64,000 bases of DNA from Candidatus Doudnabacteria bacterium. GTDB taxonomy: Bacteria > Patescibacteriota > Doudnabacteria > UBA920. The stretch covers positions 11,421 to 75,420 of the forward strand of contig JADZEH010000032.1 of NCBI GenBank assembly GCA_020850635.1. The letters are read 5' to 3'. Both the position numbers and the translations under genes were made by a program. The notes under the pieces are model-generated. The model had not been told where the DNA came from and searched no databases. It was given only the letters and a program-made list of their open reading frames with translations. Shown piece by piece: positions 19,901 to 46,048 of this stretch; position 1 is the stretch's first letter; every line of letters starts with the position of its first letter.

Positions 19901-20911
19901 GCTGGTCAGACCGTAGCTACAATAAAGGGTTCTGGTGTTGGCGCCACTGCGTACTTAGTTCACACTGATCACCTCACTGGGTCTAGTGCTGTAACTAACA
20001 GCGGCGGTACGCTTGAAGAATTGATGGATTACTTCCCATTTGGGAATATTCGTCTCGACCAAAAAGTAGGAAGTTTTGATGAACAGCGTAAATACACGGG
20101 GCATGAGTATGACGTGGATACCGGACTTTCCTATATGGAAGCGAGGTATTATAATCCAAATATCGGAAGATTCCTTAGCCAAGATCCGGTCTTTCTTGCT
20201 TTGGGAAATGAAGAGGGAGTACAACAGAAAACCCAACAAGAATTACAAGAAATATTATCTGATCCTCAGTTATTGAATAGTTATTCTTACGCACGAAATA
20301 ATCCGTTAGCCTACATTGACGAAAACGGAGAGTGGCCATCTTGGAGTCAAATCAAAACTGGCTTCCAGACAGCATGGAATGTAGCCAAGCCGTTTGTACA
20401 GAACAAGATCAACCAAGTACAAAACTCTTGGAACTCATACAATGCTTATATGGACACTCCCGAGGCGCAGCAGAAGTCTCGAGATGCAGCAATGGGTGGT
20501 ATGGCTTACCTTGGACCTATTGGCGGAACTGATAGATACTTTGGATTCGGAGTAGGAAGTATTAATTCTGTAGGTAGTGGCGTGAACCTAACGTCCAGAG
20601 GAGCACTCCATATACAGAAGGGTCATACTTTATCTGGCCAAGCGCCGGGTAATAATAAAAGTTACTTCTTTAATGATGTTGATTATAAAGGTATAATAAC
20701 TAAGTATGGCAATCAAGCTAAGGGTGCAATTCAGGGCAATGGCAATGTGCAAAGAATTCTTGATATGGGCCGTCCAGTAGGATGGGATGCTACTACCGGT
20801 GGAGCAACTTCATTTATGACTATTATTACCGATAAAGCAGGTACTGTAATTACAAGCCATCCTGGCTTACCAACAACAATCAAAGCTATAGTTAAAACCA
20901 TTAAAAAGTAG
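13973..20911 (+). CDS. RHS/YD-repeat polymorphic toxin (TcB/TcC-like), 2312 aa, secreted
   Basis: Signal peptide, then an acidic Pro/Glu-rich linker. An SpvB-like N-domain follows (YEYPIVMPEGRLGMTPAVSLKYNSQ). Several FG-GAP/VCBS-like Asp-rich repeats come next (DINGDKYPDLL, DINEDGKNDIVF, DLDADGY..DVNNDGLKDY, DVNGDGLLDY). A long YD-repeat shell contains many YxYDxxGRL units (YTYDDLGRLL, YDALGRL, YTYDDLNRLL). A non-YD domain of about 170 aa is inserted at about aa 1640-1800 (...YNELRIISSEY..., DNRLRE-like). The RHS core is YTGHEYDVDTGLSYMEARYYNPNIGRFLSQDPV...YSYARNNPLAYIDENGE. A C-terminal extension of about 190 aa, Cys-free, is of unknown family. Confidence 0.9.
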   Translation: MKRTQYLGLRRLVVSFLVFLVIVMPLRPVFAQEVEASVPVTTEPVQQEPQAISEPEPTSMADETPIPTEQADELGTDKTEAPIGDEDPVSEEAVVKEDEPKPEEEVAKIFGGTQGVGLQFKIPSEPQNSVDESTGALIYEYPIVMPEGRLGMTPAVSLKYNSQNITKVDSIVGLGWELTIPYIQRERAKGVEGIYTKANFVTSFSGNLVPTTDISSSPYTVYYSEVDDGSFQKHTFNSDNTWTMTDKSGRVYTFGATAASRQDNPVDTSQVYKWMISKISDVHGNEIQYSYTKDNGQIYPSQIVYTYHSTSPAIHNVSFTYNSPSSYGATTYNAAFPVVTSKVLATIDVTTTAINGVSTNSYSLVNTNAQFIKQKLVTRIDRSYTSTITESVPYSESTSFSYSTKTPGWQQGTHSLEGYLVRNSDYIYKDIFTADFDANGFTDVLISHHDIPSQKYNRLMMNNGSTFTESSSAWSLPTHDLSSNAFIADINGDKYPDLLPRQSDPNPVYLNTGSGFSVDNSNNWKISTYVPEALICGANVGDSNSFDTNSFLHDINEDGKNDIVFFGGSSDFRVFLNNGNGFTLSNNYTFTPQSGANFTIPTVCTGDLDADGYQTLIDVNNDGLKDYFHVTHGTYLNTGSGFAYAASYQIDTAEMDRTGLGDVNGDGLLDYIGFKWTSGGNYCARLLFNDGNGFKQINPTNYPTNCDNSGVWDFSNLSYTGGNSSFFGTLMDLTADGLPDIVGRFSSYDIRGKVRAVNDGVSSWVNNSNAGDQWVDVIAPSYGKYFDINSDGVLDFITPLTSWGYGTMPASMTYMGKPSIPNRLTQITNRLGAQTVVDFDTAPTDLYDRDSAPMPVVKKITTQNLGSGQPDMVTQYDYEKGHYSTNPLTSQVKFAGFSKVTATESGIDLTPLRVTDTYFHQGDNSDSGNSEYQDHISKIGKAYRIEIKDGSGNLYSKTLNTWEHDQIYEGRDFVKLAQTMEFSFDGNTNHRDKAVSYEYDNFLGNTTKRIDWGEVTGSADGTFTDVGNDKIVTDLIYATGSSHDVVEMISSEISTDQSLNKVSETHYYYDNLSLGSIDKGNETKVEKWKSGSDYINEQKAYNSLGLVTQTTDPRGKNLVYAYDSHNLFPATVTNHLSQATQYQYHYFFGKPLQVTDVNNRVFKTLYDGAGRIIEQREPDLSNPTALVSKFVNTYSTFAGGELTRHVEYMSASEYIDSYTYSDALGREVQQRLATEDSGNYRVNDKAYDALGRLQKESSQYFSSGDAKTVATTTTNLYTTTSYDPLDRVTAIANNIGIITNTFDDWTTTVTDARGKVKVLYNDARGNLVKVDESNSGAVYTTNYEYNSNNNLVKITDALGNVRNFTYDALGRRLTAQDLHAPTDVTFGTWTYTYDNNGNITSVVDPNNQTINYTYDDLGRLLTEDFTGQSETELTYTYDSGTDGMGRLSSVVSPGANTSYLYNAHGGVKQEIKTINSTSYQTDYTYDRQGNQLEITNPDGSKVKYTYNFGGQLETVQRKETTDTSFINVVNDFDYGPHGKITLQVNQNGSQTSNIYDATKLYRLSSKITTISGGSKVQGLTYSYDNNSNITQAVDNSNTNSVKTVAYTYDDLNRLLSSTATGVAAGQSTYTEVYSYDAIGNILTKATTVGGGATINTTYSYAGSAGSSYANPHAVTSISDGINTTNFTYDNNGNMIGEGSKTFAFDYNNRMTQSVGVSGSGPTTVSFNSLAGDGAIYHQSSSWDTAHDASVGSYASFTVNNFYVRAGKNTSTSNRIERGFLPFDTSSLPDSANITSAKLKVYVYSKLNNDNDGTDWVTVTQATQPSTTVLTTGDYDLAGSINNPVEGVDAGQRKDITNVSVGGYLTFDLNVTGRGWVNTSGSTKLSLREGHDATDSAFVGTSGQYNELRIISSEYTGTSVDPILEVTYGSAPQVVTTNYKYDHTGQRVSLSNGTKTDVYPSADYNTDGTTPVKHIFGAGQTVATIKGSGVGATAYLVHTDHLTGSSAVTNSGGTLEELMDYFPFGNIRLDQKVGSFDEQRKYTGHEYDVDTGLSYMEARYYNPNIGRFLSQDPVFLALGNEEGVQQKTQQELQEILSDPQLLNSYSYARNNPLAYIDENGEWPSWSQIKTGFQTAWNVAKPFVQNKINQVQNSWNSYNAYMDTPEAQQKSRDAAMGGMAYLGPIGGTDRYFGFGVGSINSVGSGVNLTSRGALHIQKGHTLSGQAPGNNKSYFFNDVDYKGIITKYGNQAKGAIQGNGNVQRILDMGRPVGWDATTGGATSFMTIITDKAGTVITSHPGLPTTIKAIVKTIKK

Positions 20912-20914
20912 TAT

Positions 20915-21226
20915 ATGCAACATATAGGAATTGAAATTGATAATGAGACATTTAGCAAAGAAAAAAGTAGTGAGAATAACTTTGCTAAGGTATTAGGGTA
21001 TGTGTGGGAGAATACTCAGAAAGAAGATTATCCGTGGATATGGGGCATAGATGCTTATGGTTTAACAGTATTTAATATTCAGCAAACCCCAAATCTCGTA
21101 AACGAGTTATCAAAACTGAAAGATAAAGTGCAAGAAGAAGATATTAAAGCAGATATTCAAAGTTTAATAGACTTTATTACAGAGAATATGGAGCAGCACT
21201 TATATTTAAAGTTTATTGGAGATTAA
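20915..21226 (+). CDS. putative immunity protein for the RHS C-terminal toxin
   Basis: 103-aa acidic protein. It starts 4 nt after the RHS stop and has no signal peptide. This is the usual position of the cognate immunity gene. Confidence 0.5.
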   Translation: MQHIGIEIDNETFSKEKSSENNFAKVLGYVWENTQKEDYPWIWGIDAYGLTVFNIQQTPNLVNELSKLKDKVQEEDIKADIQSLIDFITENMEQHLYLKFIGD

Positions 21227-21294
21227 TAGATTATAGATTGGTAAAGCAAACCACTCCGCACTATGTGCGGAGTGGTTTGACTCATGCAGAGCTT

Positions 21295-21678
21295 ATGGAT
21301 AAAAAGAAATATGTAATTGATGGAAATAATTTCGACACCTTAGAAGGGTTTTATGATGAGGTAAGTAATGTCTTAATCCCCGGTGCTTCTTGGGGAAGAA
21401 ACTTTGATGCATTTAATGACATATTATATGGTGGATTTGGTACCCCAGATGAAGGCTTTATCCTAATATGGAAAAATGTAAAGAGATCAAAGTCTGACTT
21501 GGGAGATACCGCAACCCTTAAATGGTTAGAAGGAAAATTGCATAATATTCATCCTTCAAATATACCGATATGGAAACAAAGAATAGCTATGCATAAATTA
21601 AGGTACGGCGAAACACTCTTTATGATACTAGTAGATATTATCTTAAACCATGAAGATATAGAGCTGAGATTTCAATAA
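21295..21678 (+). CDS. barstar-like immunity protein (barnase-inhibitor family)
   Basis: The tracked ORF begins at 21238, but a perfect hairpin (CCACTCCGCACTATGTGCGGAGTGG, 21251-21277) occupies its first codons, so the ATG at 21295 (MDKKKYVIDG) is the likely start. The block YVIDGNNFDTLEGFYDEVSNVLIPGASWGRNFDAFNDIL...ILIW parallels the barstar core (INGEQI..ISDLHQTL...LPEYYGENLDALWDCL...LVLEW). Confidence 0.6.
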   Translation: MDKKKYVIDGNNFDTLEGFYDEVSNVLIPGASWGRNFDAFNDILYGGFGTPDEGFILIWKNVKRSKSDLGDTATLKWLEGKLHNIHPSNIPIWKQRIAMHKLRYGETLFMILVDIILNHEDIELRFQ

Positions 21679-21681
21679 ATT

Positions 21682-21715
21682 AAAAACAGCTATCGTGATG
21701 TAATAGCTGTTTTTA
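21682..21715. terminator. bidirectional intrinsic terminator / left edge of the recombinase element
   Basis: AAAAACAGCTAT-CGTGATGTA-ATAGCTGTTTTT hairpin with A and T runs on both sides. It lies between the convergent barstar-like and recombinase genes. Confidence 0.55.
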
Positions 21716-23410
21716 ATTTGATTTTTTGCGGCCCATCCATTTATTCCCTCGTTTTATTTTACCTTCAATTTTGAATTGAATTGCGCTAGCATCAGATGTC
21801 TGATCGGGATCGTCGTATGCTTTTAGTTTTATTGGGATTGAGCCAATTACTTTCACTTCAGTGTTGTTATAAATTACTTCTTTAATGTAATCTTTTAAAA
21901 ATTCACGAGTCTTGTCGCTGTTGTTACAAAGATTTAATCTTGATCTTACTGATTCGCAATATCTTTTTATACTAGCTTCTATAACTTCTTCTTTATGAAG
22001 ACTAGGCACCTGATTAAGCAGCTTTGCTTTATTGACATTGTGATTAGTAAGTTCACTATCATAGCTTAAGCACCTTTTTACATATTCGGCTCTATTAATT
22101 TTACCGCTGGCATATTGATCAATTGTTTGTTTTCTTTTAGTAGCAAGATCAGCTATTCGCTTTCCATTCTCTTTCAGCTTAGATTCAATTTGTTTTCGGT
22201 TTTTCAATTGACCTACATTAGTAGTTAGGCATAACTCTAGTTTGCTCGAGTCAGTCATGCTTTCTTCGATCATATTCATTACGCAAGTGTCTAGTAGCTG
22301 AGTTAGTACCTCGGGATTGTTGCATCTCACCAACCCAGTATTCGCAGTTTGTGAATGCATTCGTTGTAAAGAAATTTGGCTACATCTGTAAGCAGTCTTA
22401 TGAAATATTTTATTTGGATCCGCAACTCTGCGCTTGTCTTTATAAGTCCGGAAGTATGAGGTGAAAAATCTACCACATATTCCGCAGTTAACTAAACCTG
22501 AAAGTAACTGTGTTTGCTTCGGGTTTCTATACTGTTCGCTGTTATATTTAATTCTTGCTTGTACCTTATTAAAAAGTTCCTGCGAGATGATCGCAGGAAC
22601 TTTCACTGGTATCCATTCAGATTTATTTTTGTAAACCTTCTTGCCGTACTTCAGTCCTCTTAGGGGACTATTTGGCTCTTTCACATAAGATCTCGTATTA
22701 TAGTATTTAATTCCGGTATAAGTGTGGTTTTGCAAAATGTTTTTTAGTTTAGAGGTATCCCAAAGTTTTCGACCCATCTTAGTAATAGCACCAATATTTT
22801 CCAGAGTTCGCACTAATTTTGCCCAACTAAATCCAGCAGCGTAGCTTTTGAAAATATATCTAACTGTTTTCGCTTCCTTTTCATTGATTATAAATTTACC
22901 TGGCTGAGTGTCGGTTCTGCGAATATATTCATACCCTAAAGCATTGTAACCGTAGTTTAATGGGATGCCTTGCCGTAGCTTGTGTAGCTTTCCTCGCTGG
23001 CTGCGTTCAATAATTTTAGCTCTTTCTAATTCTGATACTGCACCAAGTACTGTTAAGGTAAACTTGTTCTCAGGGTTATGGATGTAATCTTTGCCATTAA
23101 TTATTATTTGCTTTTTGTATTTGAGTATTTCCGCGATAATTAAGTTTTGGTAAGTAACATCTCTGGCTATGCGATCTGAATTTAAGAAGTAGATAGTATC
23201 AAACAGGGGAGTCTTAAGATCACTGCGTAGCTGATCAAGTGCAGGTCTGTCGATCTTGGCTCCACTATACCCATCGTCAATGTATTCTTTCGTTAACACA
23301 TCGCCACTTTTAGAAACTTGCTTTTTAAGTTCCTCAATTTGGCTTTCAATGGTTCGCTCTTTTTCTTGCAGAGCTGTACTTACTCTGGCATAGATCGCTG
23401 CTTTCTTCAT
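21713..23410 (-). CDS. large serine recombinase (resolvase/invertase catalytic domain + recombinase domain + zinc ribbon)
   Basis: 565 aa. The N-terminus MKKAAIYARVSTALQ carries the catalytic Ser. A long recombinase domain and a Cys-rich ribbon (CGICGRFF...C) follow. It overlaps the upstream paralogue by 4 nt (ATGA). Confidence 0.85.
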   Translation of the reverse strand: MKKAAIYARVSTALQEKERTIESQIEELKKQVSKSGDVLTKEYIDDGYSGAKIDRPALDQLRSDLKTPLFDTIYFLNSDRIARDVTYQNLIIAEILKYKKQIIINGKDYIHNPENKFTLTVLGAVSELERAKIIERSQRGKLHKLRQGIPLNYGYNALGYEYIRRTDTQPGKFIINEKEAKTVRYIFKSYAAGFSWAKLVRTLENIGAITKMGRKLWDTSKLKNILQNHTYTGIKYYNTRSYVKEPNSPLRGLKYGKKVYKNKSEWIPVKVPAIISQELFNKVQARIKYNSEQYRNPKQTQLLSGLVNCGICGRFFTSYFRTYKDKRRVADPNKIFHKTAYRCSQISLQRMHSQTANTGLVRCNNPEVLTQLLDTCVMNMIEESMTDSSKLELCLTTNVGQLKNRKQIESKLKENGKRIADLATKRKQTIDQYASGKINRAEYVKRCLSYDSELTNHNVNKAKLLNQVPSLHKEEVIEASIKRYCESVRSRLNLCNNSDKTREFLKDYIKEVIYNNTEVKVIGSIPIKLKAYDDPDQTSDASAIQFKIEGKIKRGNKWMGRKKSN

Positions 23411-25119
23411 AATTTTTCAATTACTAATTTCCCATATTCCTTCTTTGGAATTTCTTTGCCGTTAATGGTTTGATCATCTGTATTTAATTGCTTCACTCTA
23501 TTCAGTGCTTCTATTCGGTTGATTACTTGTTCAATCTTGAATTCAATTGGAACTGTTTCATCTTTTGAGACTTCAATCGCAATAGCACCTATCAGTTTGA
23601 TTTTGTCATCGGATTTGCCGTTTTTGCGGTATTCCACCTTGGCGATGTAGTCCAGTAAGAATTGTCGTTTAGAATTAAAATCTCCACATCTAGTAAATTG
23701 AGACTTTAAAGTTTTACAGTATTGTTCAGTACTCGCTTTGATAACTTCCGGTTTTTGAAATAGAGGTAGATATTTTAATAATTCAGCTCGCTTAGTTTGC
23801 AGGTTGCCAACTTCTTCATCATAGATAGAGATTCTCTTAACATATTCTTCTCGTTCCAAATCCCCAAAAGAGTAGAGATCAATTATCCGTTCTTTTTGTT
23901 TGCTAACTGTTTTGATTTTACTCTCCACATCTTTAATCTGTTTATCTAGTTTAGATTGATTCTTTTGATTATTGCCTAAGCTAATATAATTTCGGAGCTC
24001 ATTAGGTTTAAGTAATATACTCGTGACCATTTCAACTACCGTTGAATCTAGTACCCTGGTATCAATCTCAGGGTTATGGTTTATGCCTTTAGTTCTGCAT
24101 CGGTATACCGCTTTTTGATATAGCTTAATTCCAGACTTTCTTTCGACTTTGTAATACCTTCGATAGGCGAAGCATCTCAGTTTGCATTTACCGCAGAACA
24201 CTAGATTAGATAGTAGCTGGGTTCGCTGTGCATTTCTAAAACATTCATAGTTATATTTCATCCTTGCTTGCACTTGGTCAAATAATTTCTTTGGTACAAT
24301 TTGCGGTATTTTTATTCCAACCCATTCCGAGCGGTCTCTGTGGATTTTCTTGCCGCGCTTAGTTCTGCGGATTACATTTCCAACCGCATTCGTATCCGTC
24401 ATGGTATTGAAATACTTTGTGCCTGTATAGGTCTCGTTTTGTAGAATGTATTTTAGATGCCCATCACCAAGTTTGTTTCTTTGCTCTTTGGCTAGACCCT
24501 TCGTTTTTAGCTGTCTCGCTAATTCTTTCAGTCCAATATTTCCTTTTGCATACGTTTCAAAAATATACCTTACTATTTTTGCCTCGTGTTCGTTGATTGC
24601 ATAAGAGGGGGAAGAGTCTGTTGTTCTTGGCGTGTATATATAACCATAAATATGACAACCGTTGCTTAACAGATATCCTTGTTTTAATCTGTGCTGCGAT
24701 CCGCGCCTTGTTCTCTCTAACGTTTTAGCTCGCTCCAATTCTGATACCGCACCTAATACCGTGAGTGTGAATTTGTTTTCTGGGTTATTTACATAATCCT
24801 TCCCATTGATAATGATCTGCTTTTTGTAATGCAGAAATTCGCTGATAATAATATTCTGGTAAGTTACATCTCTGGCAATGCGATCAGCATTCAAAATGTA
24901 GATAGTCTGAAATCCCAGAGTTCTAATATCTCTCCTCAGGTCATTCATAGCTGGTCTATCCAGCAAGCATCCGCTGAATCCATCGTCGATGTATTTTTTT
25001 ACCAAAACATCCCCAGAAGCTCTAATTTGCCTTTTAAGCTCCGATATTTGGCTTTCTATAGTTCGCTCCTTCTGCTGGGCATCGGAGCTTACTCTTGCAT
25101 AAAATACTGCTCTTTTCAT
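23407..25119 (-). CDS. large serine recombinase (paralogue of the downstream gene)
   Basis: 570 aa with N-terminus MKRAVFYARVSSDAQ. It is about 60-65% identical to the 21713-23410 product over the first 150 aa (…IARDVTYQN.II.E.L.YKKQIIINGKDY.NPENKFTLTVLGAVSELERAK…). This is a tandem pair reminiscent of CcrA/CcrB-type two-recombinase elements. Confidence 0.85.
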   Translation of the reverse strand: MKRAVFYARVSSDAQQKERTIESQISELKRQIRASGDVLVKKYIDDGFSGCLLDRPAMNDLRRDIRTLGFQTIYILNADRIARDVTYQNIIISEFLHYKKQIIINGKDYVNNPENKFTLTVLGAVSELERAKTLERTRRGSQHRLKQGYLLSNGCHIYGYIYTPRTTDSSPSYAINEHEAKIVRYIFETYAKGNIGLKELARQLKTKGLAKEQRNKLGDGHLKYILQNETYTGTKYFNTMTDTNAVGNVIRRTKRGKKIHRDRSEWVGIKIPQIVPKKLFDQVQARMKYNYECFRNAQRTQLLSNLVFCGKCKLRCFAYRRYYKVERKSGIKLYQKAVYRCRTKGINHNPEIDTRVLDSTVVEMVTSILLKPNELRNYISLGNNQKNQSKLDKQIKDVESKIKTVSKQKERIIDLYSFGDLEREEYVKRISIYDEEVGNLQTKRAELLKYLPLFQKPEVIKASTEQYCKTLKSQFTRCGDFNSKRQFLLDYIAKVEYRKNGKSDDKIKLIGAIAIEVSKDETVPIEFKIEQVINRIEALNRVKQLNTDDQTINGKEIPKKEYGKLVIEKL

Positions 25120-25388
25120 ACCAACATTGATGACGCAGCTTCTTGATCTAGTCTAGGCCAGCTGTTGGTAACTTTCGACTTTACTTTAACTCCAACCCAA
25201 GCTAGGATGGACTGGATTATGCGCCCTAAATATCGTATAATTGCATTAACAACTTAATGCCTAACCCCTCAGGAATGAGGATATGGCGCTAAAACCTATC
25301 ACAGATACTGAACCCTCCGTTCAGCTACTGTGATAGGTCGTATCTGGAAACAGGTACGGGACCGCAAGGTCCATGCTGGCGGGGGGCT

Positions 25389-25997
25389 TTGTGTTTTCTG
25401 CCAGCAAGAAAGCCTATCACAAACATGGACAATCAATCTGCCTCACCAGAGGCAAAACAACCTTCCATTCTATGGAAGCGTATTAAGACTATCGCTAAAG
25501 GTATAGCTATTTTCATAGTCGTACTTATAGTTGCAGCTGTGTGGCAAAGTATGAATCAACCACAGTCACAAACGCAGTCGCAAGGCACGGCTCAACAAGC
25601 AGAAGAACCAAAAGAAGAACAAACTCCTGCTAAAGAACCTCCCGTTGAACCATTCAATATTGAAGTTACCAGTCAGATAGTCAAAAAAGTAGACGGCAAA
25701 TACCGCTACTTCTTTGACATCAGAAACAAAGACACTAAGAACTTTGAGGGAGCAGTGACTATTAATTTGCTAAGAGCAAATAACAGTAGGCTTGGCTCAG
25801 ATACGTTTACTACTACAAGAGCTATTGAACCTAATCTTGGTTTTGCTCAATACATTGAAATTAATTCAGGACCAATGCCGATGTTTGATTCAGAATCAGC
25901 AATTACTAAATTCACATACGAAGTGAAGATAGATAAGAAATCCGTGAAGAGCGGAGAAGGAGTTATTACAGATAAGTTTGAGAACTTAGATTATTAA
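25389..25997 (+). CDS. hypothetical secreted/membrane-anchored protein
   Basis: 202 aa. The likely start is the internal Met (MDNQSAS, about 25431). It has one N-terminal TM helix, then a Gln/Glu/Pro-rich linker and a beta-rich domain. Confidence 0.45.
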   Translation: MCFLPARKPITNMDNQSASPEAKQPSILWKRIKTIAKGIAIFIVVLIVAAVWQSMNQPQSQTQSQGTAQQAEEPKEEQTPAKEPPVEPFNIEVTSQIVKKVDGKYRYFFDIRNKDTKNFEGAVTINLLRANNSRLGSDTFTTTRAIEPNLGFAQYIEINSGPMPMFDSESAITKFTYEVKIDKKSVKSGEGVITDKFENLDY

Positions 25998-26560
25998 ATT
26001 GCATCTTCTTCCGTTTCTAGGCCACCAGACTCTAAATAACCTTTAACTGGTTTATCTGAGTATCTATCTTCATCATCTACATAATCAGGGTGAGTTGTAT
26101 CGTACCTATGAACTACCGCATTTGCAGCTCTAGTGAATAAATCAAAGACATTATCAATTTGCTCTTTAACTTCTTCTGTAACCTCTGGATGTTTGGCCTG
26201 TACCTTGAATTCATTAATCACAGTCCTGCGATCAGAAAATTTTGGATCACGACTCTTAAGCCAAAATATGGCAGCCGTCATATTGCCTTTACTCATTTCC
26301 TCAATGAGTTTTGATTGAGCAAGTTCATTAATAACCATAGAACCTTCACGGACTGCTTCTGTCGCAACTCTATCAAACTCAGCATCTTCCTCGCACCAGC
26401 GATAGTATGTAGACCTAGCTATGCCAACTTTCTTCACTGCTACTTGCACCACAGGCATCTTTAAAAGCACTTCTACTAATTGAAGTTTTTGTTCAGCGAT
26501 ACGCTTGGCAATCTTTTCTAGTTCCTTTTTATTCTTTGGAGTTTTGCTGGTCTTTACCAT
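25994..26560 (-). CDS. HTH DNA-binding protein, possibly a phage terminase small-subunit-like regulator
   Basis: 188 aa with the helix-turn-helix segment VGIARSTYYRWCEED and a charged N-terminus. Its context next to a phage-type methyltransferase suggests phage origin. Confidence 0.45.
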   Translation of the reverse strand: MVKTSKTPKNKKELEKIAKRIAEQKLQLVEVLLKMPVVQVAVKKVGIARSTYYRWCEEDAEFDRVATEAVREGSMVINELAQSKLIEEMSKGNMTAAIFWLKSRDPKFSDRRTVINEFKVQAKHPEVTEEVKEQIDNVFDLFTRAANAVVHRYDTTHPDYVDDEDRYSDKPVKGYLESGGLETEEDAI

Positions 26561-27893
26561 AGTCTTTATCGCTACTGATCTTAACCGCTTTAGAACCAGT
26601 TAACTTTTCCCAGCGTTTGATAATCACTTCAGTGTAAGTGGGAACTTTCTCCATTGTGTAGCAACGGCGAGCCATTTTCTCACAGGCTATGAGTGTACTG
26701 CCAGAGCCGCCATATGGTTCGACTACAAGCCCTCCGCGTTCAGTGAGTACTTTGATGTAGGGAATAAGGATTTCCACTGGTTTAGTACCAAAGATAATAC
26801 CTTGACCAGAAGACTTCTCGTCACTGGCTTTGTATTCAATAAAGTCAGTAGGACAAATCTTTTTACCTTTCTCATAGTTCTCCCAGTGCGGTTTTCCTGA
26901 AATGGCAAATAAAGCTGTTTCGTATTCTTCTTGAAGCAAAGCTTCTTCCTCAGCAGTATTAAGATGGGCATCGCCAGAAGTGCCAACCATAGCAATATCA
27001 TGCTTGTTAAAGAATTTATGTTTAGCTGCAAATCCTTGAGTACGATTGGGCAAGTGCCAGACAATCATGTTTTTCACTTTCCAATACTTTTCCATCTCAG
27101 ACCAAATGGTGCGAAGATTTTTCCAGTTCTCATATACGATGATACTGAAATCTTCTTTGGCGAATTTAGCAATGTTGGTCATCCAAAGCTCGGTGAAGTT
27201 ATCTGGCAATTCATCTGTTTCCATATACCTACGGTCGCGCTTCAAACCAAAGCCACTCTTGTCCTGACCTTTCTTTTTACCTTTCAGGTAATCCAAGATG
27301 TATGGCGGATCTGTTAAACACAAATCTGCTTTCTCGTTGTTCATCAAGCGGAGAAAATCTTTTTCAATGGTAGAGTCGCCGCACATCAGGCGGTGTTTGC
27401 CTAATTGATAAATATCTCCCTTTTGAACTTTCACTTCAGTGATATCCAACTTCTTGAGCTCTTTTTCCAGATCAAAGACTTCTGGATTTTCCTCAACAGC
27501 AAAGATCTCATCAAGTTCCTCGCTGATAAAGCCGATATCGCTCAGTAGCGATTCGTCAAAAGCAGAGAGGAGTTCCAAATCAAACTCACCACGGTTTTTA
27601 TTTAAGCGCAGGTTAAGTTCTTTTTCTTTTGTTTCATCAGGAATATTCAGATACACCACTGGTGCTTCTGTTTTCCCAAGTTCTTTTAATGCCGCAATGC
27701 GCATGTGTCCGCCGATGAGAATGTTCTTGCGGGTTTCTGCACTGTTCACGAGCAGTGCTTCTACTGTACCGAAGCGCTTAATGCTTTCCTTAAGCTGACT
27801 AAGTGCTTCTTTTGACCACTTGCGTGGGTTGTAGGTGGCAGTAATGAGCTCCTCAATTGGCACATACTGCACCTGAAGTTTTTCGTTTTTCAT
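26529..27893 (-). CDS. ParB-like nuclease domain fused to an N6-adenine/N4-cytosine DNA methyltransferase
   Basis: 454 aa. The N-terminal ParB/Srx-like segment is IEELITATYNPRKWSKEALSQLKESIKRFGTVEALLVN. The MTase motif IV is DPPY (LCLTDPPYILDY), and the C-terminal SAM-binding region is EPYGGSGST. This architecture is common in phage and plasmid orphan methyltransferases. Confidence 0.8.
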   Translation of the reverse strand: MKNEKLQVQYVPIEELITATYNPRKWSKEALSQLKESIKRFGTVEALLVNSAETRKNILIGGHMRIAALKELGKTEAPVVYLNIPDETKEKELNLRLNKNRGEFDLELLSAFDESLLSDIGFISEELDEIFAVEENPEVFDLEKELKKLDITEVKVQKGDIYQLGKHRLMCGDSTIEKDFLRLMNNEKADLCLTDPPYILDYLKGKKKGQDKSGFGLKRDRRYMETDELPDNFTELWMTNIAKFAKEDFSIIVYENWKNLRTIWSEMEKYWKVKNMIVWHLPNRTQGFAAKHKFFNKHDIAMVGTSGDAHLNTAEEEALLQEEYETALFAISGKPHWENYEKGKKICPTDFIEYKASDEKSSGQGIIFGTKPVEILIPYIKVLTERGGLVVEPYGGSGSTLIACEKMARRCYTMEKVPTYTEVIIKRWEKLTGSKAVKISSDKDYGKDQQNSKE

Positions 27894-28072
27894 GAACGTA
27901 AAGTTAATTATTTAACCTTTACAGTTCAATTTAAGTACAAGTTTAGTTCAGTCTTAGACAATTTAGGTACAAAAAAACCGCGAGCTGGGATAATCCAGTA
28001 TTCACAGTTAAGGTTCAAATAAAACAGTACTTAAAGTATATCACCATCGTCCTTTTATTGCCTGTGGAAAAG

Positions 28073-28081
28073 TGGTAAAAT
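28073..28081 (+). promoter_or_regulatory. extended -10 promoter element upstream of the 1132-aa gene
   Basis: TGgTAAAAT at 28073-28081, about 40 nt upstream of the TTG start at 28123. The preceding intergenic region carries direct repeats AATTTAAGTACAAG and AATTTAGGTACAAA plus a small hairpin CTGGGATAATCCAG. Confidence 0.4.
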
Positions 28082-28122
28082 ATAGATATTTATTGTTTTT
28101 TCCAGCATAAATTTTATAGATT

Positions 28123-31100
28123 TTGAACCCTGATCAAGAACAAAATATTGGCTCTAATGAGCCAACCCCAGTTGAAGATTTGCTATCTTCTGCTTCAGAT
28201 AAGCAGAAGAAAATTAGAGATGCCTTAATTAACCTTGACCCTGAGTTTGGAAAAAGATTGTCCCAGGTTTATGAGGGTTTAATCTTAGGATTTAATTATA
28301 AAGTTAATCCTGAGAGAATACCACAAGTTTGTCATTCTGCAAGAGAGTTATCGTCGATTCTGCCCAGGTATTTTCCTGGACTTCCAATATTAGAGCGCGT
28401 TGATAATAGAAAAAATCCTGATGAACCTAGACAAAGAGAATTACTGAAAGGGATTTTAGGCAATCATCCTGAGCGAAGCGCTTTGCCTGAATACCTCCAA
28501 GAGACATTTGTAGATGAGTGGATGAATGTTCATGACTATTTTAATAAATATTCAAAACACGATGATATCAAAAATAAAAATGGTTTAGAAATTTCAGAAC
28601 AAGAATTTGAAGCTAATGTTTGGAAGTTTGAGGACCTGCTTTACAGAACTTTAGTTGAGATACCATTCTTTGATTCGCTGGATGAGATCGAATCATTGTT
28701 AAAAATAGAAAACCCTACTGATTCTAATGTAGCAACATTATCACAGCTCATCGCTCAGCCTCAACACAACAGATATTTTTTTGAAAAATGTAACAACCCA
28801 GAATGGTTGGCACCTCTTAATAAAAGAGGGGCCTTTTCTAAACCCCAAGAGCCCCTTAAGCAGGATGGGTATGTACGTTTTATAGGATGGCCTGAATCGC
28901 AGTACTTAGTTCGTATTGTAGACAGGAAATCAAACGAGGTCTACGAGATCATAAAAACCCTAGATTCAGAAAATCAATCTGTCTTAGATGATTTTATTGA
29001 TGCAGCACTTAAGTCTCCAGTAGAAATCGCTGCTAAGTACGTGGAGTTAATAATAAAGAAGAAGTGGTTACAGAATCCGTATAATCTTTTACTGCCAGAC
29101 AAGGTCGCGGAATTAATGGAAAAGTTAGCAGCGGCTGGAAAAGTTGACGAAGCAATAAAATTAGCTAGGGTATTATTTGATGTCCATATTGTAAAACCAG
29201 TCAGTGAAACAAACGAAGAAATTCCATTGTCATGGATTCGACCCGAAGCGAAGCCTTACTTTGATGAGTGGAGATACAAAGAAGTAATTACCAAGAAAAC
29301 AAAAGAGATTGCTAAAGCAAGCCCAGTTTTATTATTTCAAACTTTGGCTACAATCCTTCATCAAGCTTTAGATTTGGAAAAAAGAGAAAATGTATCTGAT
29401 GATTTTTATGAGTATTCCCACATTTGGAGACCAAACCTCGGGCATACTAGAAACCCTAATAGAGAAGATGCTAAAAACGTTTTAATCGACGGTTTGATTG
29501 AGTTAATCGAAAATAATAAAAATGACACTACAGTTATGGAAGGATTTGTGGAAATTTTAAGTAAACATAATCAAGGTTTCTTCAGAAGGTTGGAGATGTT
29601 TCTTCACCTGAATGCAACTGAGCCGCAAACCGAAGCAATTGAAAAATTGCTTACCGAAAAAAAGATTATTACTTCGTATAATCTAAGACGTGAATATTTG
29701 CCATTGTTAGAGAAGTTCTTCTCAACAATAACCTCTCAAGGACAAAATACAATTCTTGAAGCCATAGATTCAGGCCCCAATCTAACAAAAACAGATGATA
29801 CTACAACTGAGCAATTTGATGCTATGAATAACCGATGGCGTAGTATGTATTATGGGTCAATAAAACAGGTATTGCTTTCACCGCACAAAGAAAAGTATGA
29901 AGAATTGCAGATATTAACTGGTCCAGTAGTAATTGATGATGGAGAGCTCAAAGTTACCGGTGGGTGGATTGGGGACGAAAGTCCTTTGTCTATGGAAGAT
30001 ATGAAAAGTATGAAACCAGATAAGGTAATTGATTACCTGAGAGATTTCAAGGATTCAGGCGACTTTTCTGAAAGAATGTCTTCCTCGGGGTTAGGCATTA
30101 TTTTTGGAAATGTGGTTGCAGAAAATCCAGAAACGTACATTTCAGTTGCCGGTGATTTACTAAGTAACAAATTAAAACCACTGTACATCTATCATTTTTT
30201 GAATGGCATTAAGCAAACCCTAAAAGAACCTAGGGTTTTAGATTGGAAACCTGTTATTGATTTGTGCTACTCAATTATCTTCGTTAAGTCAGGGGAATCG
30301 CTTACGAAACCTGGTAATGACAGTGAACAAAATTGGGATTCTGTGCATATGGCTATTGCTGATCTTTTAGGAGCAGCTTTGGGTGATAAAAATACTTCCG
30401 TTTCAGTAGACTTACAAAGTCCTATTTGGGATATTATTTTAGAATTGACCAAAAATGAAGAACCTACTATTGAAGATGAAGAACGGGATAATGGGGGAAA
30501 CCTTGATCCTATGACTCTCTCAATCAATACTGTGAGAGGAGAGGCATTGCATGCAGTGGTTAATTATGCACTGTGGTTAGATAGGTTTAGCGTAGATATT
30601 AAAAAACTGGGATCGAAAATTCCTAAAATTGTCGAGGATGTATTAGATTTTCATTTAGACACTAACAATGATCCTTCGCTAGCAATTAGATCTGTTTACG
30701 GATGGAGACTGCCCAACCTGTCTTACCTAAGTATGGAATGGGTTAAGTCTAGAAAAGATAAAATTTTCCCAAAAGAAAAAGGATCAGAAAAATTATTTTT
30801 ATCTGCTTTTGAAAGTTATCTGACTAATAATGTGTACCATGATCTGTTCGATCTGTTTATCGAAGAGTATCGTATTGGTATATCTCTGCTTGGAACGGTC
30901 GAAAAGGAAGGATATCATGGCGCTGATATAAACGAAAAATTACCTCAACATTTAATGATTACTTATGTGCATGATGCTAAGCACGATGATCTTATTCGTC
31001 ATTTTTTTGATGTGGCGCCTGTTAAGTCTAGAATACAAGCTATTAATTTTGTAGGAAGAGTAATCTTTGGAGAACTATCAAAATTAGATAATCCTAAATA

Positions 31101-31521
31101 CGCAATTGAACGGTCACTAAAATTATGGGATGATAGACTATCCGCAACAAATGCAAATATTGCAGAAGAGTTACAAGAATTTGGGTGGTGGTTTAAGCGT
31201 AGCCCTTTCTCTCGTCAGGATAACATTACCAGACTTGTAAAAACTCTAGAGCTCACCAATGGTTTAATTGATGCTCCTTATGAGGTGGCAGAAGAACTTC
31301 AGGAGTACTCAGCAACCTTTCCTCTGGAAGTAATTACGGCCTTGTCATTAATTGCGCATGGCATAAAAGAAGGTCATGAGATTTCTTATAAAATGAATGA
31401 GTACAGAGAAATTATTACTAAAGTAAAAGAATCTGGTAATACAGAAGCAGTCAACAAAGCAAATGAATTAATAAACTATCTTGGTTCCAGAGGCTTCATT
31501 GATTTTAGGGATTTACTCTAA
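28123..31521 (+). CDS. large hypothetical protein (1132 aa), predicted soluble and helical, no recognisable domain
   Basis: The long ORF has a TTG start, and the first in-frame ATG is more than 100 codons in. It has no signal peptide or TM segment, and no Walker, HExxH, DEAD, GxSxG or Cys-cluster motif. It is rich in Leu, Glu and Lys with heptad-like stretches, consistent with HEAT/ARM or TPR-like solenoids. It is translationally coupled to the next gene (TAATG). Confidence 0.6.
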   Translation: MNPDQEQNIGSNEPTPVEDLLSSASDKQKKIRDALINLDPEFGKRLSQVYEGLILGFNYKVNPERIPQVCHSARELSSILPRYFPGLPILERVDNRKNPDEPRQRELLKGILGNHPERSALPEYLQETFVDEWMNVHDYFNKYSKHDDIKNKNGLEISEQEFEANVWKFEDLLYRTLVEIPFFDSLDEIESLLKIENPTDSNVATLSQLIAQPQHNRYFFEKCNNPEWLAPLNKRGAFSKPQEPLKQDGYVRFIGWPESQYLVRIVDRKSNEVYEIIKTLDSENQSVLDDFIDAALKSPVEIAAKYVELIIKKKWLQNPYNLLLPDKVAELMEKLAAAGKVDEAIKLARVLFDVHIVKPVSETNEEIPLSWIRPEAKPYFDEWRYKEVITKKTKEIAKASPVLLFQTLATILHQALDLEKRENVSDDFYEYSHIWRPNLGHTRNPNREDAKNVLIDGLIELIENNKNDTTVMEGFVEILSKHNQGFFRRLEMFLHLNATEPQTEAIEKLLTEKKIITSYNLRREYLPLLEKFFSTITSQGQNTILEAIDSGPNLTKTDDTTTEQFDAMNNRWRSMYYGSIKQVLLSPHKEKYEELQILTGPVVIDDGELKVTGGWIGDESPLSMEDMKSMKPDKVIDYLRDFKDSGDFSERMSSSGLGIIFGNVVAENPETYISVAGDLLSNKLKPLYIYHFLNGIKQTLKEPRVLDWKPVIDLCYSIIFVKSGESLTKPGNDSEQNWDSVHMAIADLLGAALGDKNTSVSVDLQSPIWDIILELTKNEEPTIEDEERDNGGNLDPMTLSINTVRGEALHAVVNYALWLDRFSVDIKKLGSKIPKIVEDVLDFHLDTNNDPSLAIRSVYGWRLPNLSYLSMEWVKSRKDKIFPKEKGSEKLFLSAFESYLTNNVYHDLFDLFIEEYRIGISLLGTVEKEGYHGADINEKLPQHLMITYVHDAKHDDLIRHFFDVAPVKSRIQAINFVGRVIFGELSKLDNPKYAIERSLKLWDDRLSATNANIAEELQEFGWWFKRSPFSRQDNITRLVKTLELTNGLIDAPYEVAEELQEYSATFPLEVITALSLIAHGIKEGHEISYKMNEYREIITKVKESGNTEAVNKANELINYLGSRGFIDFRDLL

Positions 31522-32114
31522 TGCCACGGCAACAAGTTAAAGATATGTATATAGTACTTAAGGATTTTGAACCAATGGTAAAAGATCCGCGGTTCTTGAG
31601 GAATGGCCGTCCTATTCCTAACTTTTCTGTTTTACCTCGAGAGGCTTGGGCTAACTGGCTTTTGTGTGTGGTACTTAGAGATTTTTTTCAACATGATATT
31701 ACTTTCGCGGAAGATGATGAAACTGATGGAGTAATTTATGATAAGGATACTAACCAATGGTTTTTTACTGAACATGTCTGTGCGCTGCAAACTCCTGGAC
31801 CTCATGCTAGTCTAAAAGGCGAAGATCGGGTAATGTATGCAATACAACATAAAATAGATAGAGGTGTTGATTATGCTCGTGGAAAAAGGTTGGTTGTATT
31901 TATAGAAGATGCTGGTGAGTGGTTTCCTAATAGAGTAGGGAGGTCTATTCATGGAACGCATAGCTTTGATGCAGTGTACTGCATTGGTATTAGCTCGCTA
32001 ACAGATGATGGCTATACGTACTTCGTTACTCAGTTAGATCACCAAAATTCTCCAGCTTGGAAAGTTTTTATCAATATGGATTTCACTGATTGGCAAGTAA
32101 TCAGACTTCAATAA
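31521..32114 (+). CDS. hypothetical protein (197 aa), coupled to the upstream large protein
   Basis: Its start overlaps the stop of the 1132-aa ORF, and there is no recognisable motif. Confidence 0.5.
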   Translation: MPRQQVKDMYIVLKDFEPMVKDPRFLRNGRPIPNFSVLPREAWANWLLCVVLRDFFQHDITFAEDDETDGVIYDKDTNQWFFTEHVCALQTPGPHASLKGEDRVMYAIQHKIDRGVDYARGKRLVVFIEDAGEWFPNRVGRSIHGTHSFDAVYCIGISSLTDDGYTYFVTQLDHQNSPAWKVFINMDFTDWQVIRLQ

Positions 32115-32133
32115 TACTAAATTTTGATTCTAA

Positions 32134-32496
32134 ATGGACATTAATAGCTTATTAGATCAAATAATACATAATACAATATTAAATTTTTGGGCAATAATAA
32201 AAACAAGCTGGTCTTCACTTTGGCCTTATGTTTTAGGGCTTGCAGTACTTATACTTGGCGGTATAATTCTACAAATTATTATGCTACGCAGTGGTAGTCA
32301 TAATAAACTTTCTGCTGGTTTTAATAGTCTTGTTGGCAGCCTATTTTGGTTCATCTTCTTTGCCATCTTGTTAGGTATAGCTTACGTAGTATTTGGTCCT
32401 CAGGTTATTGATGAAATATGGTTCGGATTACTTAGCATGATCGCATTTTTTCTAGCAGGCGGGTTCCTCAGACTAATCGGCTTCTGGTATTATTAA
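32134..32496 (+). CDS. small integral membrane protein (3 TM)
   Basis: 120 aa and hydrophobic. It is the third gene of the cassette, 20 nt after the previous stop. Confidence 0.5.
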   Translation: MDINSLLDQIIHNTILNFWAIIKTSWSSLWPYVLGLAVLILGGIILQIIMLRSGSHNKLSAGFNSLVGSLFWFIFFAILLGIAYVVFGPQVIDEIWFGLLSMIAFFLAGGFLRLIGFWYY

Positions 32497-32763
32497 CCAG
32501 CCCTTTTTATACTGTCTCATTTGTCTCATTTTGGTGCTATACTAATCCTGAAAGCACATTCAAAATCTCTATATATTGTCTTCGGAGGATTGCAGGAATG
32601 GATCAACCCAAAATTCGGATTGCGAACCTCAAAAATGTCCTCACAGGGTCTCAAATTTCTTTCCAAGTTTGCGTTCTATGTCTCACTTTTACTCTTGCAG
32701 GAATGCGGAGCAGGTGAAGGGTAGTGTGGTTACGCAGGCTCAGAGCTAGATGCAGATACAGGC

Positions 32764-33585
32764 TTGAACTATATGCAAGCTAGGTACTATAATTCTAGTA
32801 TTGGTAGATTTATCAGCCAGGATCCAGCTTACTTGAATCTAAATAGATTAGATGTGCAGTTAAGTGATCCACAAAGTTGGAATAGTTATGCTTATGCCAG
32901 GAACAACCCACTTGCATTAGCTGATCCAACAGGGGAATTCTGGGATACTTTTATAGATGGTATATCTCTTGGGTACAGTCTGCATCAGACTTTATACAAT
33001 GGAACCAAAGCTTTGGGTGGATATGCTTCCATCGGTGCTGGGAAGGTGTTTAACAATCAGTATGCCATAAATGCTGGTAGAGCAGATGTAGCTCGGTATG
33101 GGGCAAAGACAGCCAATAGTGCTCAGGGTTTAGCGATTGATGCAGTTGGTACTGCAGTTCCTTTTGTTCCTGCTGCTGGTATTAAAGCGGCGGCTAAGGC
33201 TGATGCAGTTATAGATATAGCAAAATCTGTCAAACAGGCTGGGGTTGCTGAGGTGTCTCCACTTCTTCGTTCAGGGGATTCTTTTACACAGGCAGGAGAG
33301 CATGTGCTTAGAGATCACCCAAATCGATATCCTGGCATGTCAGCTGAGGATGTAGCAAACTTGGCAAGACAAACTCAGAAGACCGCGAATACAAAGGGAA
33401 CCATCAGAGGTATTGACCCAAGAACTGGACAACCAGTGAATAAAAATTATTATGGGAGTAAGTCTACTGGTCAAATGTTCATAAAAACTAACTTAGGGAA
33501 TTCAACTATTTTTCCTAAGCAAAATATTGGTAGTTATATATATAGACACATATCGAAAGATATTGGTAAATTTGGAAGGAGATAG
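32764..33585 (+). CDS. orphan RHS C-terminal toxin module (RHS core tail plus alternative toxin tip)
   Basis: The tracked start is TTG, but homology to the main RHS core begins at an in-frame stop near 32713. The conceptual translation there is YAGSELDADTGLNYMQARYYNSSIGRFISQDPAYL...SYAYARNNPLALADPTGE, against YTGHEYDVDTGLSYMEARYYNPNIGRFLSQDPVFL...SYSYARNNPLAYIDENGE in the main gene. A toxin domain of about 200 aa follows, Ala/Gly-rich and unlike the main tip. Confidence 0.7.
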   Translation: MNYMQARYYNSSIGRFISQDPAYLNLNRLDVQLSDPQSWNSYAYARNNPLALADPTGEFWDTFIDGISLGYSLHQTLYNGTKALGGYASIGAGKVFNNQYAINAGRADVARYGAKTANSAQGLAIDAVGTAVPFVPAAGIKAAAKADAVIDIAKSVKQAGVAEVSPLLRSGDSFTQAGEHVLRDHPNRYPGMSAEDVANLARQTQKTANTKGTIRGIDPRTGQPVNKNYYGSKSTGQMFIKTNLGNSTIFPKQNIGSYIYRHISKDIGKFGRR

Positions 33586-33586
33586 T

Positions 33587-33916
33587 ATGATTAAGTTTGA
33601 TCAATATACTTGGTTAGTTATAATTGAAGCTATCGATTCATGTTCAGAAGCTGATCCTGAGTTAATTGAAAAAGAAACTGGTTTTCAGTTACAACAATTT
33701 GAAGACTTTAAAGAAAAATACGTAAATTCTATTCAAAAGAGCATGAATCAAGATGATTTACCAATAGTAGTAGCAGCTTTAGAATGGATGTTGGTGACCA
33801 AGAATGATTCGGACATATTACAGATTCATAAGGAAGATGGATTACGTCTTCTTGAATTACTAAGTCAGAAAAGGGGTGAAATAAGAGAAGCGGCATGGTC
33901 ATTGCATTCTGTATAG
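33587..33916 (+). CDS. putative immunity protein for the orphan RHS toxin
   Basis: An ATG sits 1 nt after the orphan toxin stop, preceded by GGAAGGAG. It encodes about 109 acidic residues. The track gives a longer 33527 start that overlaps the toxin. Confidence 0.5.
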   Translation: MIKFDQYTWLVIIEAIDSCSEADPELIEKETGFQLQQFEDFKEKYVNSIQKSMNQDDLPIVVAALEWMLVTKNDSDILQIHKEDGLRLLELLSQKRGEIREAAWSLHSV

Positions 33917-44276: not shown

Positions 44277-44613
44277 TATGGAAATTTCAAAAGCCCAAGA
44301 AAATTTAAAATCTTTATTATCAAGGGTCGCTTACCCTAGAATCGGCACAATTATTGGATTACAAGAAGAGGTCGGAAAGCTTTCTAAGGTTATCATGGAT
44401 ATCGAAATTTATAATAGGGAATTAAATAAAGCAGAGTTGGACAAGAGATGTGCTAATGTCTTTGTTGCTGTTATGGATATGTGTAATTCTTATGATATAG
44501 ATTTGGAGTTAGTTATAGAAAAACGTATAGAAGAAGTTAATTCTAAAATAAAAATGTGGGAAAGTCAGTACGGTGAAGAGTTAAGAAACAAAAGAGAAAG
44601 ATTCGATGAATAG
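44263..44613 (+). CDS. MazG-like nucleoside triphosphate pyrophosphohydrolase (small all-alpha NTP-PPase)
   Basis: 116 aa. It has the EExxE/K motif in helix 1-2 (GLQEEVGKLSKVIMDIE) and a second acidic cluster (DMCNSYDIDLE). The start overlaps the upstream stop. Confidence 0.55.
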   Translation: MLKNNMEISKAQENLKSLLSRVAYPRIGTIIGLQEEVGKLSKVIMDIEIYNRELNKAELDKRCANVFVAVMDMCNSYDIDLELVIEKRIEEVNSKIKMWESQYGEELRNKRERFDE

Positions 44614-45328: not shown

Positions 45329-45331
45329 TAT

Positions 45332-45940: not shown

Positions 45941-46048
45941 AAAAATAAAAGACATCTTTAACTAATAGATGTCTTTTATCGGTGCAGCTAGTCTAATTGG
46001 TGGAATTGAGGATACTTTAATTACCACACTTTTAGAAAATTGGTTACA

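Follow-up and report, generated by a model that had tools for sequence, protein, structure and literature searches.

In a 64,000-nucleotide stretch of the Candidatus Doudnabacteria contig JADZEH010000032.1 (positions 11,421 to 75,420, forward strand; hereafter the window), three adjacent genes encode proteins of 1132, 197, and 120 amino acids (the large protein, p197, and p120). The large protein has a C-terminal sensor homologous to that of the defense proteins Dsr1 and Avs7, and its homology and architecture make it almost certainly a member of the broader Dsr1/Avs7-sensor family that combines this sensor with an alternative effector. The best explanation of the cassette, which we prefer on balance, is that the large protein is a single-chain sensor-effector of this family and that p197 and p120 are independent cargo. 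An earlier, sequence-only reading had presented the cassette as an unannotatable three-gene system in a mobile defense island. The observation behind that reading is largely real and its interpretation is half right; its headline of a three-gene system that matches nothing described fails. The three open reading frames (ORFs) lie where it had placed them, as both our ORF calls and the NCBI proteins show; the NCBI record of the same metagenome-assembled genome contains the identical three proteins, each labeled "hypothetical."

Dsr1 and the STAND protein Avs7 have a homologous TPR/solenoid sensor, for which the phage major capsid protein (MCP) acts as the trigger in Escherichia coli (2026; bioRxiv PMC12803255, Nature PMC13581612). 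About 9,100 proteins with this sensor are described, and their effectors include NADases, nucleases, kinases, an "HEPN-like RNase," and several unknowns (PMC13581612). Some of these proteins are "split" (PMC12803255, PMC13581612).

The large protein has a Dsr1/Avs7-type sensor

The sequence-only reading saw no recognizable motif in the large protein, could match it to no described system, and counted on a null result from PADLOC. These three points are overturned by the PADLOC model for Dsr1 (PDLC04166), which aligns, from profile position 291 to 1215 of 1227, with residues 183-1127 of the large protein (E=3e-46). The alignment takes in everything but the SIR2 head and leaves the first ~290 profile positions unmatched. 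In tblastn searches of plasmids, residues ~180-1132 match genes annotated as "SIR2 family protein" (Bacillus, Vibrio) and also haloarchaeal "AAA/ATP-binding protein" genes. Stand-alone homologs of the sensor from other phyla match the same Dsr1 model at E=7e-51 to 1e-53. An AlphaFold2 (AF2) model of the large protein, built with 28 homologs as input (mean predicted local distance difference test score, pLDDT, 83.8), is all-alpha and forms a long alpha-solenoid. Thus, the PADLOC model, the tblastn matches, and the all-alpha fold agree on a Dsr1-type C-terminal sensor.

Other searches gave little. Nothing significant was found for the large protein in Pfam, NCBIfam, or PHROGs, and a PDB sequence search returned nothing meaningful and no solved relative. 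In the structural comparison that the sequence-only reading had proposed, Foldseek of the AF2 model against the PDB retrieved only generic importin/CRM1-type solenoids with template-modeling (TM) scores of ~0.2.

Several other identities of the large protein were considered and rejected. It is not Dsr1 proper: no SIR2 or SIR2_2 Pfam match is present, real SIR2 partners being readily detected in other loci, the Dsr1 alignment begins at profile position 291, and the N terminus is homologous to a different family. It is not a STAND/Avs protein, since no NTPase domain is found by Pfam at E<1, and the PADLOC DSR2 models do not match it. The large protein fits the non-STAND proteins with the shared sensor: its sensor is homologous, a STAND NTPase is missing, and a putative effector is joined to the N-terminal side, where such proteins have it fused or adjacent. 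These proteins are also marked by a bilobed, sharply bent TPR architecture; what the AF2 model shows here is a long alpha-solenoid with only generic Foldseek matches. The possibility of a phage tail or tape-measure protein, which by the terms of the sequence-only reading would have refuted it, is rejected because there is no match in PHROGs, in 50,697 phage genomes searched by tblastn, or in IMG/VR. The IMG/VR scans returned no relatives of either the large protein or p197; they were pattern-based, so that absence there is not proof.

A helical domain occupies the position of the SIR2 head

We scanned GTDB species representatives for the sensor and obtained 76 loci, in which ORFs were called with a simple longest-ORF caller. 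In the clade from the candidate phyla radiation (CPR), with 45-82% identity to the large protein, homologs are full length. Outside the CPR, for example in Solirubrobacterales, Bdellovibrio, NC10, gammaproteobacteria, and some archaea, conservation is limited to residues ~180/218-1132, and these sensors are only about 25-30% identical to those of the CPR clade. The non-CPR sensor is mostly a stand-alone gene of 925-990 amino acids, the start of which is overlapped by 4-29 nucleotides by an upstream gene. The genomic surroundings in other phyla are chromosomal and plasmid defense contexts, with SIR2 partners and with toxin-antitoxin (TA) and restriction-modification (R-M) genes nearby.

The partners of the sensor fall into three groups. 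In 7 loci (group 1), the partner is a SIR2_2 protein (Pfam E=1e-12) that also matches the N-terminal part of Dsr1 in PADLOC, and these loci are therefore split Dsr1; a RefSeq example is on the Vibrio coralliilyticus plasmid pOCN014 (WP_040122581/WP_040122582). Group 2 is one 24-member family comprising 22 separate genes (205-340 amino acids) and 2 fused N termini, and group 3 has five members, four of them fused N termini and one a separate gene. When the first ~200 residues of the large protein were compared by hhalign with the 24-member family, they aligned over 178 columns with a probability of 99.6% (E=8e-24). Group 3, taken with the Streptomyces NBC_00212 fusion, falls into this superfamily as well (probability 98.2%, E=5e-14). 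The N terminus of the latter was missed by hidden Markov models (HMMs) of the N-terminal domain and was found by profile-profile comparison alone.

A tightly linked 3' gene is present in only 6 of the 24 non-CPR partner-plus-sensor loci, and therefore partner and sensor make up the minimal unit. Because the helical domain takes the position of SIR2 and a 3' gene is this infrequent, we read the domain as an effector, probably an RNase or other nuclease. An RNase specifically is a plausible but tentative choice.

In the AF2 model, the N-terminal domain is helical. In the window it carries N62, P63, R65-x5-H71-x2-R74-E75, H146, and E170, with R65-IPQVC-H71-SA-R74-E75 as the window form of an R-x5-H-x2-R-E motif. 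Among 107 members, conservation is 100% for R74, 94% for E75, 95% for E170, 89% for N62, 87% for H71, 78% for R65, and 79% for H146; position 145 is H in 89% of them and K in the window. The motif, in the form R-x(4-6)-H-x2-R-E, occurs in 70 of the 107. These residues delimit a candidate active-site motif (R-x5-H-x2-R-E, H, E).

When the N-terminal profile was used for an exhaustive HMM search, 944 representative clusters (at least 944 at 50% identity) were retrieved. Stand-alone proteins of 150-300 amino acids account for 88 of the top 146 clusters, and the sensor is present in all 35 representatives of at least 1000 amino acids. Since every long representative carries it, the domain is dedicated to the Dsr1/Avs7-type sensor.

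The only recurrent Pfam match of the domain is pP_pnuc_1 (PF18165, "predicted pPIWI-associating nuclease"), which is sub-threshold and was found in 10 of 12 CPR domains and 9 of 16 split partners. For the window domain, the score is 15.4 bits (E=0.015), below the gathering cut-off of 26.3, and the PADLOC model "Aga_Nuclease" matches the family weakly. A literature search on pP_pnuc_1/PF18165 found no papers. The domain has an HEPN-like Rx4-6H signature; the weak signals suggest that it is a distant pP_pnuc_1 relative, and it may correspond to the published "HEPN-like" or "Unk" effector class.

The three genes do not form a conserved triad

The sequence-only reading took the three genes as a unit and proposed to examine their co-occurrence. 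All three were found together only in the window and in loci L001, L002, and L009, which represent one element lineage with an 82%-identical large protein; BLASTP and family HMMs found no triad in roughly 155 other loci. The sequence-only reading would, by its own terms, be refuted if the triad occurred nowhere else, and this is the case but for the one near-identical element. In a homolog of the large protein at 64% identity, the 3' gene already encodes a 443-amino acid SEC-C-motif protein, and at 45-52% identity it encodes a 341-amino acid protein, a 365-amino acid HNH_5 protein, a member of a 597-amino acid family, or a protein of 526 or 162 amino acids. PADLOC returned nothing for these alternative CPR 3' genes. 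A conserved triad is therefore rejected: each gene has its own family and distribution, and the association is lost already at 64% identity.

The overlap of stop and start codons at the junction of the large gene and p197 (cTAATGc, 31519-31523), from which the sequence-only reading derived translational coupling, is present as described. It is not kept in the 82%-identical relative, where it is replaced by a 5-nucleotide spacer (TAAccattATG).

p197 is a PD-(D/E)xK-fold protein found across CPR defense loci

A family of 118 homologs with 43-84% identity to p197 was collected, and all those with a named source come from Patescibacteria (CPR). No Pfam domain is found in any of them; p197 itself has no match in Pfam, NCBIfam, PHROGs, or PADLOC, and PDB sequence searches with p197 and its profile gave nothing meaningful. 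An alpha-beta-beta-beta-alpha-beta restriction-endonuclease-like core is present, and the family invariants are E41, D69-G70, E84-H85, and K111, the last on the second core helix. These invariants fit, in a comparison made by sequence, the PD-EXX-K lysine-migration variant that Steczkiewicz et al. described for PA4535 (1y0k). We are confident that p197 has the PD-(D/E)xK fold, with the PD-EXX-K variant as its probable type, and p197 is probably a nuclease with D69, E84, and K111 as its active site. The closest structures are PA4535/DUF1780 (PDB 1y0k) and the CdiA-CT PD-(D/E)xK tRNase toxins. With neither of them does p197 share sequence similarity that could be detected. It differs from them in an additional helical region at its N terminus and in a CPR-restricted distribution in defense loci, whereas DUF1780 is Pseudomonadales-specific with a conserved gene context.

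The genomic context of p197 was analyzed in 84 loci outside the window lineage. In about 22 of these, the gene is within a Type I R-M operon between hsdM and hsdS, and in 3 of these operons it directly follows hsdM. In 6 loci its neighbor is a ParB-methylase of the kind found in the window. A same-strand gene lies no more than 30 nucleotides upstream in 52 loci, and these upstream genes form 36 unrelated clusters that include SduA_C, RhuM, MvaI/BcnI, AbiU2-HEPN, AAA_15, and HerA as well as RecQ-like, pseudouridine-synthase-like, and GNAT genes. Neither the sensor nor its N-terminal domain was found in any of the 84 loci. From these data, we conclude that p197 is an autonomous orphan CPR family that roams defense loci independently of the large gene.

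What p197 does in such loci can be viewed in two other ways. It could be a selfish homing-endonuclease-like gene or a solitary restriction-type (Type IV-like) nuclease that came to lie behind the Dsr1-like gene by chance, an account that concerns p197 only and is compatible with our explanation of the large protein. The fold with its invariant D69, E84, and K111, the occurrence of homologs at 43-84% identity in very different contexts, the precise placement between hsdM and hsdS in about 20 loci, and positions beside housekeeping-type genes agree with it; however, the enrichment in defense loci equally fits a true defense gene, and p197 was not found on viral contigs in the pattern-based scan of IMG/VR. 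We regard this account as possible but on the unlikely side. A more far-reaching proposal is that CPR Dsr1-type sensors use interchangeable downstream plug-ins (p197, an HNH nuclease, or 597-amino acid, SEC-C, and other proteins), with p197 as a universal trans-effector or guard nuclease for unrelated CPR defense genes. If so, p197 would be recruited by Type I R-M, Shedu-like, AbiU2-like, and Dsr1-like genes, and one effector module would be common to unrelated immune sensors in minimal-genome bacteria; we consider this distinctly improbable.

Two further observations were made in the p197 loci. In at least 12 of them (L085, L088, L094, L116, L129, L134, L140, L145, L146, L152, L155, and L167), the p197-family gene overlaps the next ORF by exactly 28 nucleotides, and the downstream genes differ; this may be an artifact of a conserved 3' end with an out-of-frame start codon or a conserved junction. 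In L146, a group I intron match (RF00028, 68 bits; positions 2207-2438) lies ~3.7 kb 5' of the ParB-methylase/p197 island.

p120 belongs to a small CPR family of membrane proteins

The hydropathy profile of p120 has three strongly hydrophobic segments (residues about 31-52, 66-88, and 96-117), which bears out the three transmembrane segments assigned to it by the sequence-only reading. Searches of Pfam, NCBIfam, PHROGs, and PADLOC with p120 found nothing. Among its 29 homologs, the sole one with a named source beyond the window genome is from Candidatus Paceibacterota. Three diverged homologs follow a 1583-amino acid unknown protein, an AAA_13 ATPase, or small unknown genes, all in serine-recombinase/methylase islands, and BLASTP and family HMMs detected no p197 or Dsr1-like gene near them. 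p120 is thus a small CPR family and, like p197, independent roaming cargo. The 1583-amino acid protein (L170:234-4985), which has no Pfam domain and directly precedes its p120 homolog, is encoded beside an N6_Mtase/Eco57I-type gene.

Proposed action of the large protein and evidence against it

From the homologies, architecture, distributions, and folds described above, we infer how the large protein may act. Its C-terminal solenoid would bind a conserved phage protein, possibly the MCP if EcDsr1 and SeAvs7 are taken as a guide. Once the target is bound, the helical R-x5-H-x2-R-E domain would be released or assembled; it would serve in place of the SIR2 NADase head as the effector (most likely an RNase or other nuclease), and its action would bring phage replication or host growth to a halt. 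As the protein has no SIR2 domain, it is not expected to deplete NAD+. A role as an anti-phage defense protein is likely. The MCP as the specific trigger is a doubtful extrapolation; MCP-triggered activity is known for EcDsr1 and SeAvs7 only (PMC13581612). p197 and p120 would function independently of the large protein, and the three genes would have a promoter and a terminator in common because they fill the cargo slot of a mobile element, not because they build one machine.

Several observations speak against this explanation. For the MCP trigger, the extrapolation starts from proteobacterial proteins at only about 20-25% identity. The effector role of the N-terminal domain is putative for all members. 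Some split partners have Y, C, or N in place of H71, which is unusual for a catalytic residue, and the pP_pnuc_1 match is below the gathering threshold in every member (25.6 versus 26.3 bits for the best relative). Every locus of the CPR clade has a same-strand 3' gene between -26 and +16 nucleotides from the large gene. In one CPR subclade, this position is stably occupied by the 597-amino acid family (L007:9374-11167, L012, L013, L014, and L016), which has no Pfam or PADLOC match and co-diverges with its large protein over 52-85% identity, which makes a two-component mechanism conceivable for the CPR clade. The TAATG overlap also suggests co-translation with p197 in the window element.

These last observations are those expected if the cassette were a two- or three-component system in which the N-terminal domain is an adaptor, the large protein, on sensing phage, activates the product of a downstream gene that is swapped between lineages, and p120 is a second effector or an anchor. 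Two of the 3' genes, p197 and HNH_5, are nuclease-like, and a category of effector-associated domains (EADs) exists for the Dsr1/Avs7 sensor family. However, p197 follows at least 36 unrelated upstream genes and occurs directly after hsdM without a partner, in none of the 84 loci outside the window lineage is it found with the sensor or N-terminal domain, 18 of the 24 partner-plus-sensor loci outside the CPR have no tightly linked 3' gene, and the overlap is already missing in the 82%-identical relative. CPR genomes are compact, so tight gene spacing is expected in them and is weak evidence of linkage. We therefore consider a multicomponent system unlikely and retain the single-chain sensor-effector as the explanation of the large protein.

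Relation to described systems

The window protein resembles Dsr1 (defense-associated sirtuin 1; Gao et al. 2020; Garb et al. 2022; PMC13581612) in its homologous ~930-amino acid C-terminal sensor, in the combination of an N-terminal effector and this sensor in one polypeptide, and in its defense and mobile contexts. It differs in having an unrelated ~200-amino acid helical domain instead of the SIR2 NADase and in its CPR host. Split Dsr1 (pOCN014) has the same sensor, and helical-domain genes of other phyla take the exact position and overlap of its SIR2 gene; the window protein differs in that its partner is not SIR2 and forms one chain with the sensor.

An alternative effector joined to the shared sensor is also found in the non-STAND "HEPN-like RNase" protein of Streptomyces sp. 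NBC_00271 (PMC13581612, Extended Data Fig. 2). The N termini of the NBC_00212 fusion and its relatives belong, by hhalign, to the superfamily of the window domain, and an Rx5H signature is a further common trait. In contrast to these non-STAND proteins, the CPR clade has a strongly diverged sensor (about 25-30% identity to non-CPR sensors) and lineage-specific 3' neighbors. DSR2, a SIR2 protein with an alpha-solenoid that senses the tail tube protein, is similar in pairing an N-terminal effector with a helical-repeat sensor that binds a phage structural protein, but its sensor family and effector are different.

A supposed orphan three-gene system in Candidatus Doudnabacteria thus becomes interpretable by way of a Dsr1/Avs7-type phage-protein sensor, and this recently defined sensor family extends into the CPR. 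Its non-SIR2 head represents a large domain family that is dedicated to the sensor, either fused to it or encoded by an overlapping upstream gene. Also new are the PD-(D/E)xK orphan family (PD-EXX-K) that roams CPR defense loci and a compact recombinase/ParB-methylase/LOOT-RNA element with variable defense cargo. These results extend current understanding and do not overturn it.

The cassette is cargo of a mobile element

The cassette lies within a serine-recombinase/ParB-methylase element (Table 1), in agreement with the mobile region recognized by the sequence-only reading. Its wider proposal of a mobile-element defense island holds insofar as the cassette is cargo of this element and the large protein is probably anti-phage, although not as to an unmatched three-gene system. 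The cassette's own extended -10 promoter that it described can be read directly in the sequence; this promoter-like element is absent from our consensus-scan list because it is without a -35 match. Of the direct repeats reported upstream, we find one 14-nucleotide repeat, in the intergenic region that separates the divergent ParB-methylase and Dsr1-like genes; having two copies, it could be due to chance. With the promoter-like element upstream and a terminator-like hairpin at the end, the three genes look like one transcription unit. An Rfam scan found no family within the cassette.

Table 1. Coordinates of features in the window and of LOOT RNA in related loci
Feature	Position	Strand	Basis or remark
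Two tandem large serine recombinases (565 + 570 aa, 4-nt overlap)	21713-25119	-	Pfam Resolvase + Recombinase + Zn_ribbon_recom; left end of element
Conserved element backbone	25162-27893		LOOT RNA, 202-aa ORF, TerS-like helix-turn-helix (HTH) gene, ParB-methylase
LOOT RNA	25258-25372	+	Rfam RF03000, 83.6 bits vs gathering score 46.4
202-aa ORF	within 25162-27893	+	Backbone
TerS-like HTH gene	25994-26560	-	Backbone
ParB_N + N6_N4 DNA methylase fusion	26529-27893	-	Backbone
14-nt direct repeat CAATTTA[A/G]GTACAA, two copies 32 nt apart	27927 and 27959 (27927-27972)		Repeat scan
Extended -10-like TGgTAAAAT	28073-28081	+	Direct sequence reading; 41 nt 5' of TTG start; putative function
Large gene (1132-aa protein)	28123-31521	+	TTG start, agreeing with NCBI protein P0001
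N-terminal ~200-aa all-alpha domain, putative effector	28123-28722	+	hhalign, AF2, residue conservation
C-terminal ~930-aa alpha-solenoid sensor, Dsr1/Avs7 type	28723-31521	+	PADLOC, AF2, tblastn
p197 gene (197 aa)	31521-32114	+	ORF call
p120 gene (120 aa)	32134-32496	+	ORF call
Terminator-like hairpin, then T-run	32484-32500	+	At end of third ORF
LOOT RNA in relatives	L001:3169-3292; L003:4196-4314; L005:216-338; L013:3643-3768; L176:1201-1325		Rfam scan

DNA common to the window and a related element extends from 25162 to 32526 (76.5% identity) and ends just past the terminator. Both recombinases are outside this block, and the recombinase and cargo modules therefore have different histories. 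The same backbone is found in other CPR genomes with different cargo: the ParB_N + N6_N4 methylase and the TerS-like gene (25994-27893 in the window) recur in L001, L003, L005, L137, L146, and L176. A variable cargo slot lies across the divergent promoter of the ParB-methylase and holds a Dsr1-like gene, a Type III-like R-M system with a Dsr1-like gene, or an unrelated gene with p197. The presence of a Terminase_6C gene in some related elements suggests a satellite- or prophage-derived element.

Given these neighbors, the cassette might instead serve the element itself, through anti-defense, superinfection exclusion, or packaging and maintenance of a satellite-like element. It adjoins TerS-like, ParB-methylase, and recombinase genes, and related elements carry a large-terminase-like gene. 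On the other side, the sensor is homologous to an experimentally validated defense sensor, homologs in other phyla are in the defense contexts described above, and the lack of large-protein or p197 relatives in phage genomes and IMG/VR argues against phage-borne anti-defense cargo. A function for the element itself is thus highly improbable, and we keep to defense as the likely role of the large protein.

Six related Dsr1-like CPR loci were scanned for LOOT RNA, which was detected in 5 of them and not in L010. Its strand is always that of the cargo genes, and it lies directly 5' of the first plus-strand ORF; L003 and L176 have it at the head of the operon with the Dsr1-like gene. The ORFs that follow it are not conserved between elements. 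LOOT RNA seems to be a backbone component of the serine-recombinase/ParB-methylase element, and we know of no function for it.

To the left of the element (13973-21678), the window encodes a 2312-amino acid RHS/SpvB/FG-GAP polymorphic toxin and a Barstar-like immunity gene. To its right (32764-33916) are an orphan C-terminal RHS cassette, in which residues 2-57 match Rhs_assc_core, and a small ORF that overlaps it. An array of rhs toxin and orphan modules appears to have been the insertion site of the ~10.8-kb mobile element. Farther along the window, positions 44001-46000 form a low-GC stretch, with a GC content of 0.30 versus about 0.40 for the window.

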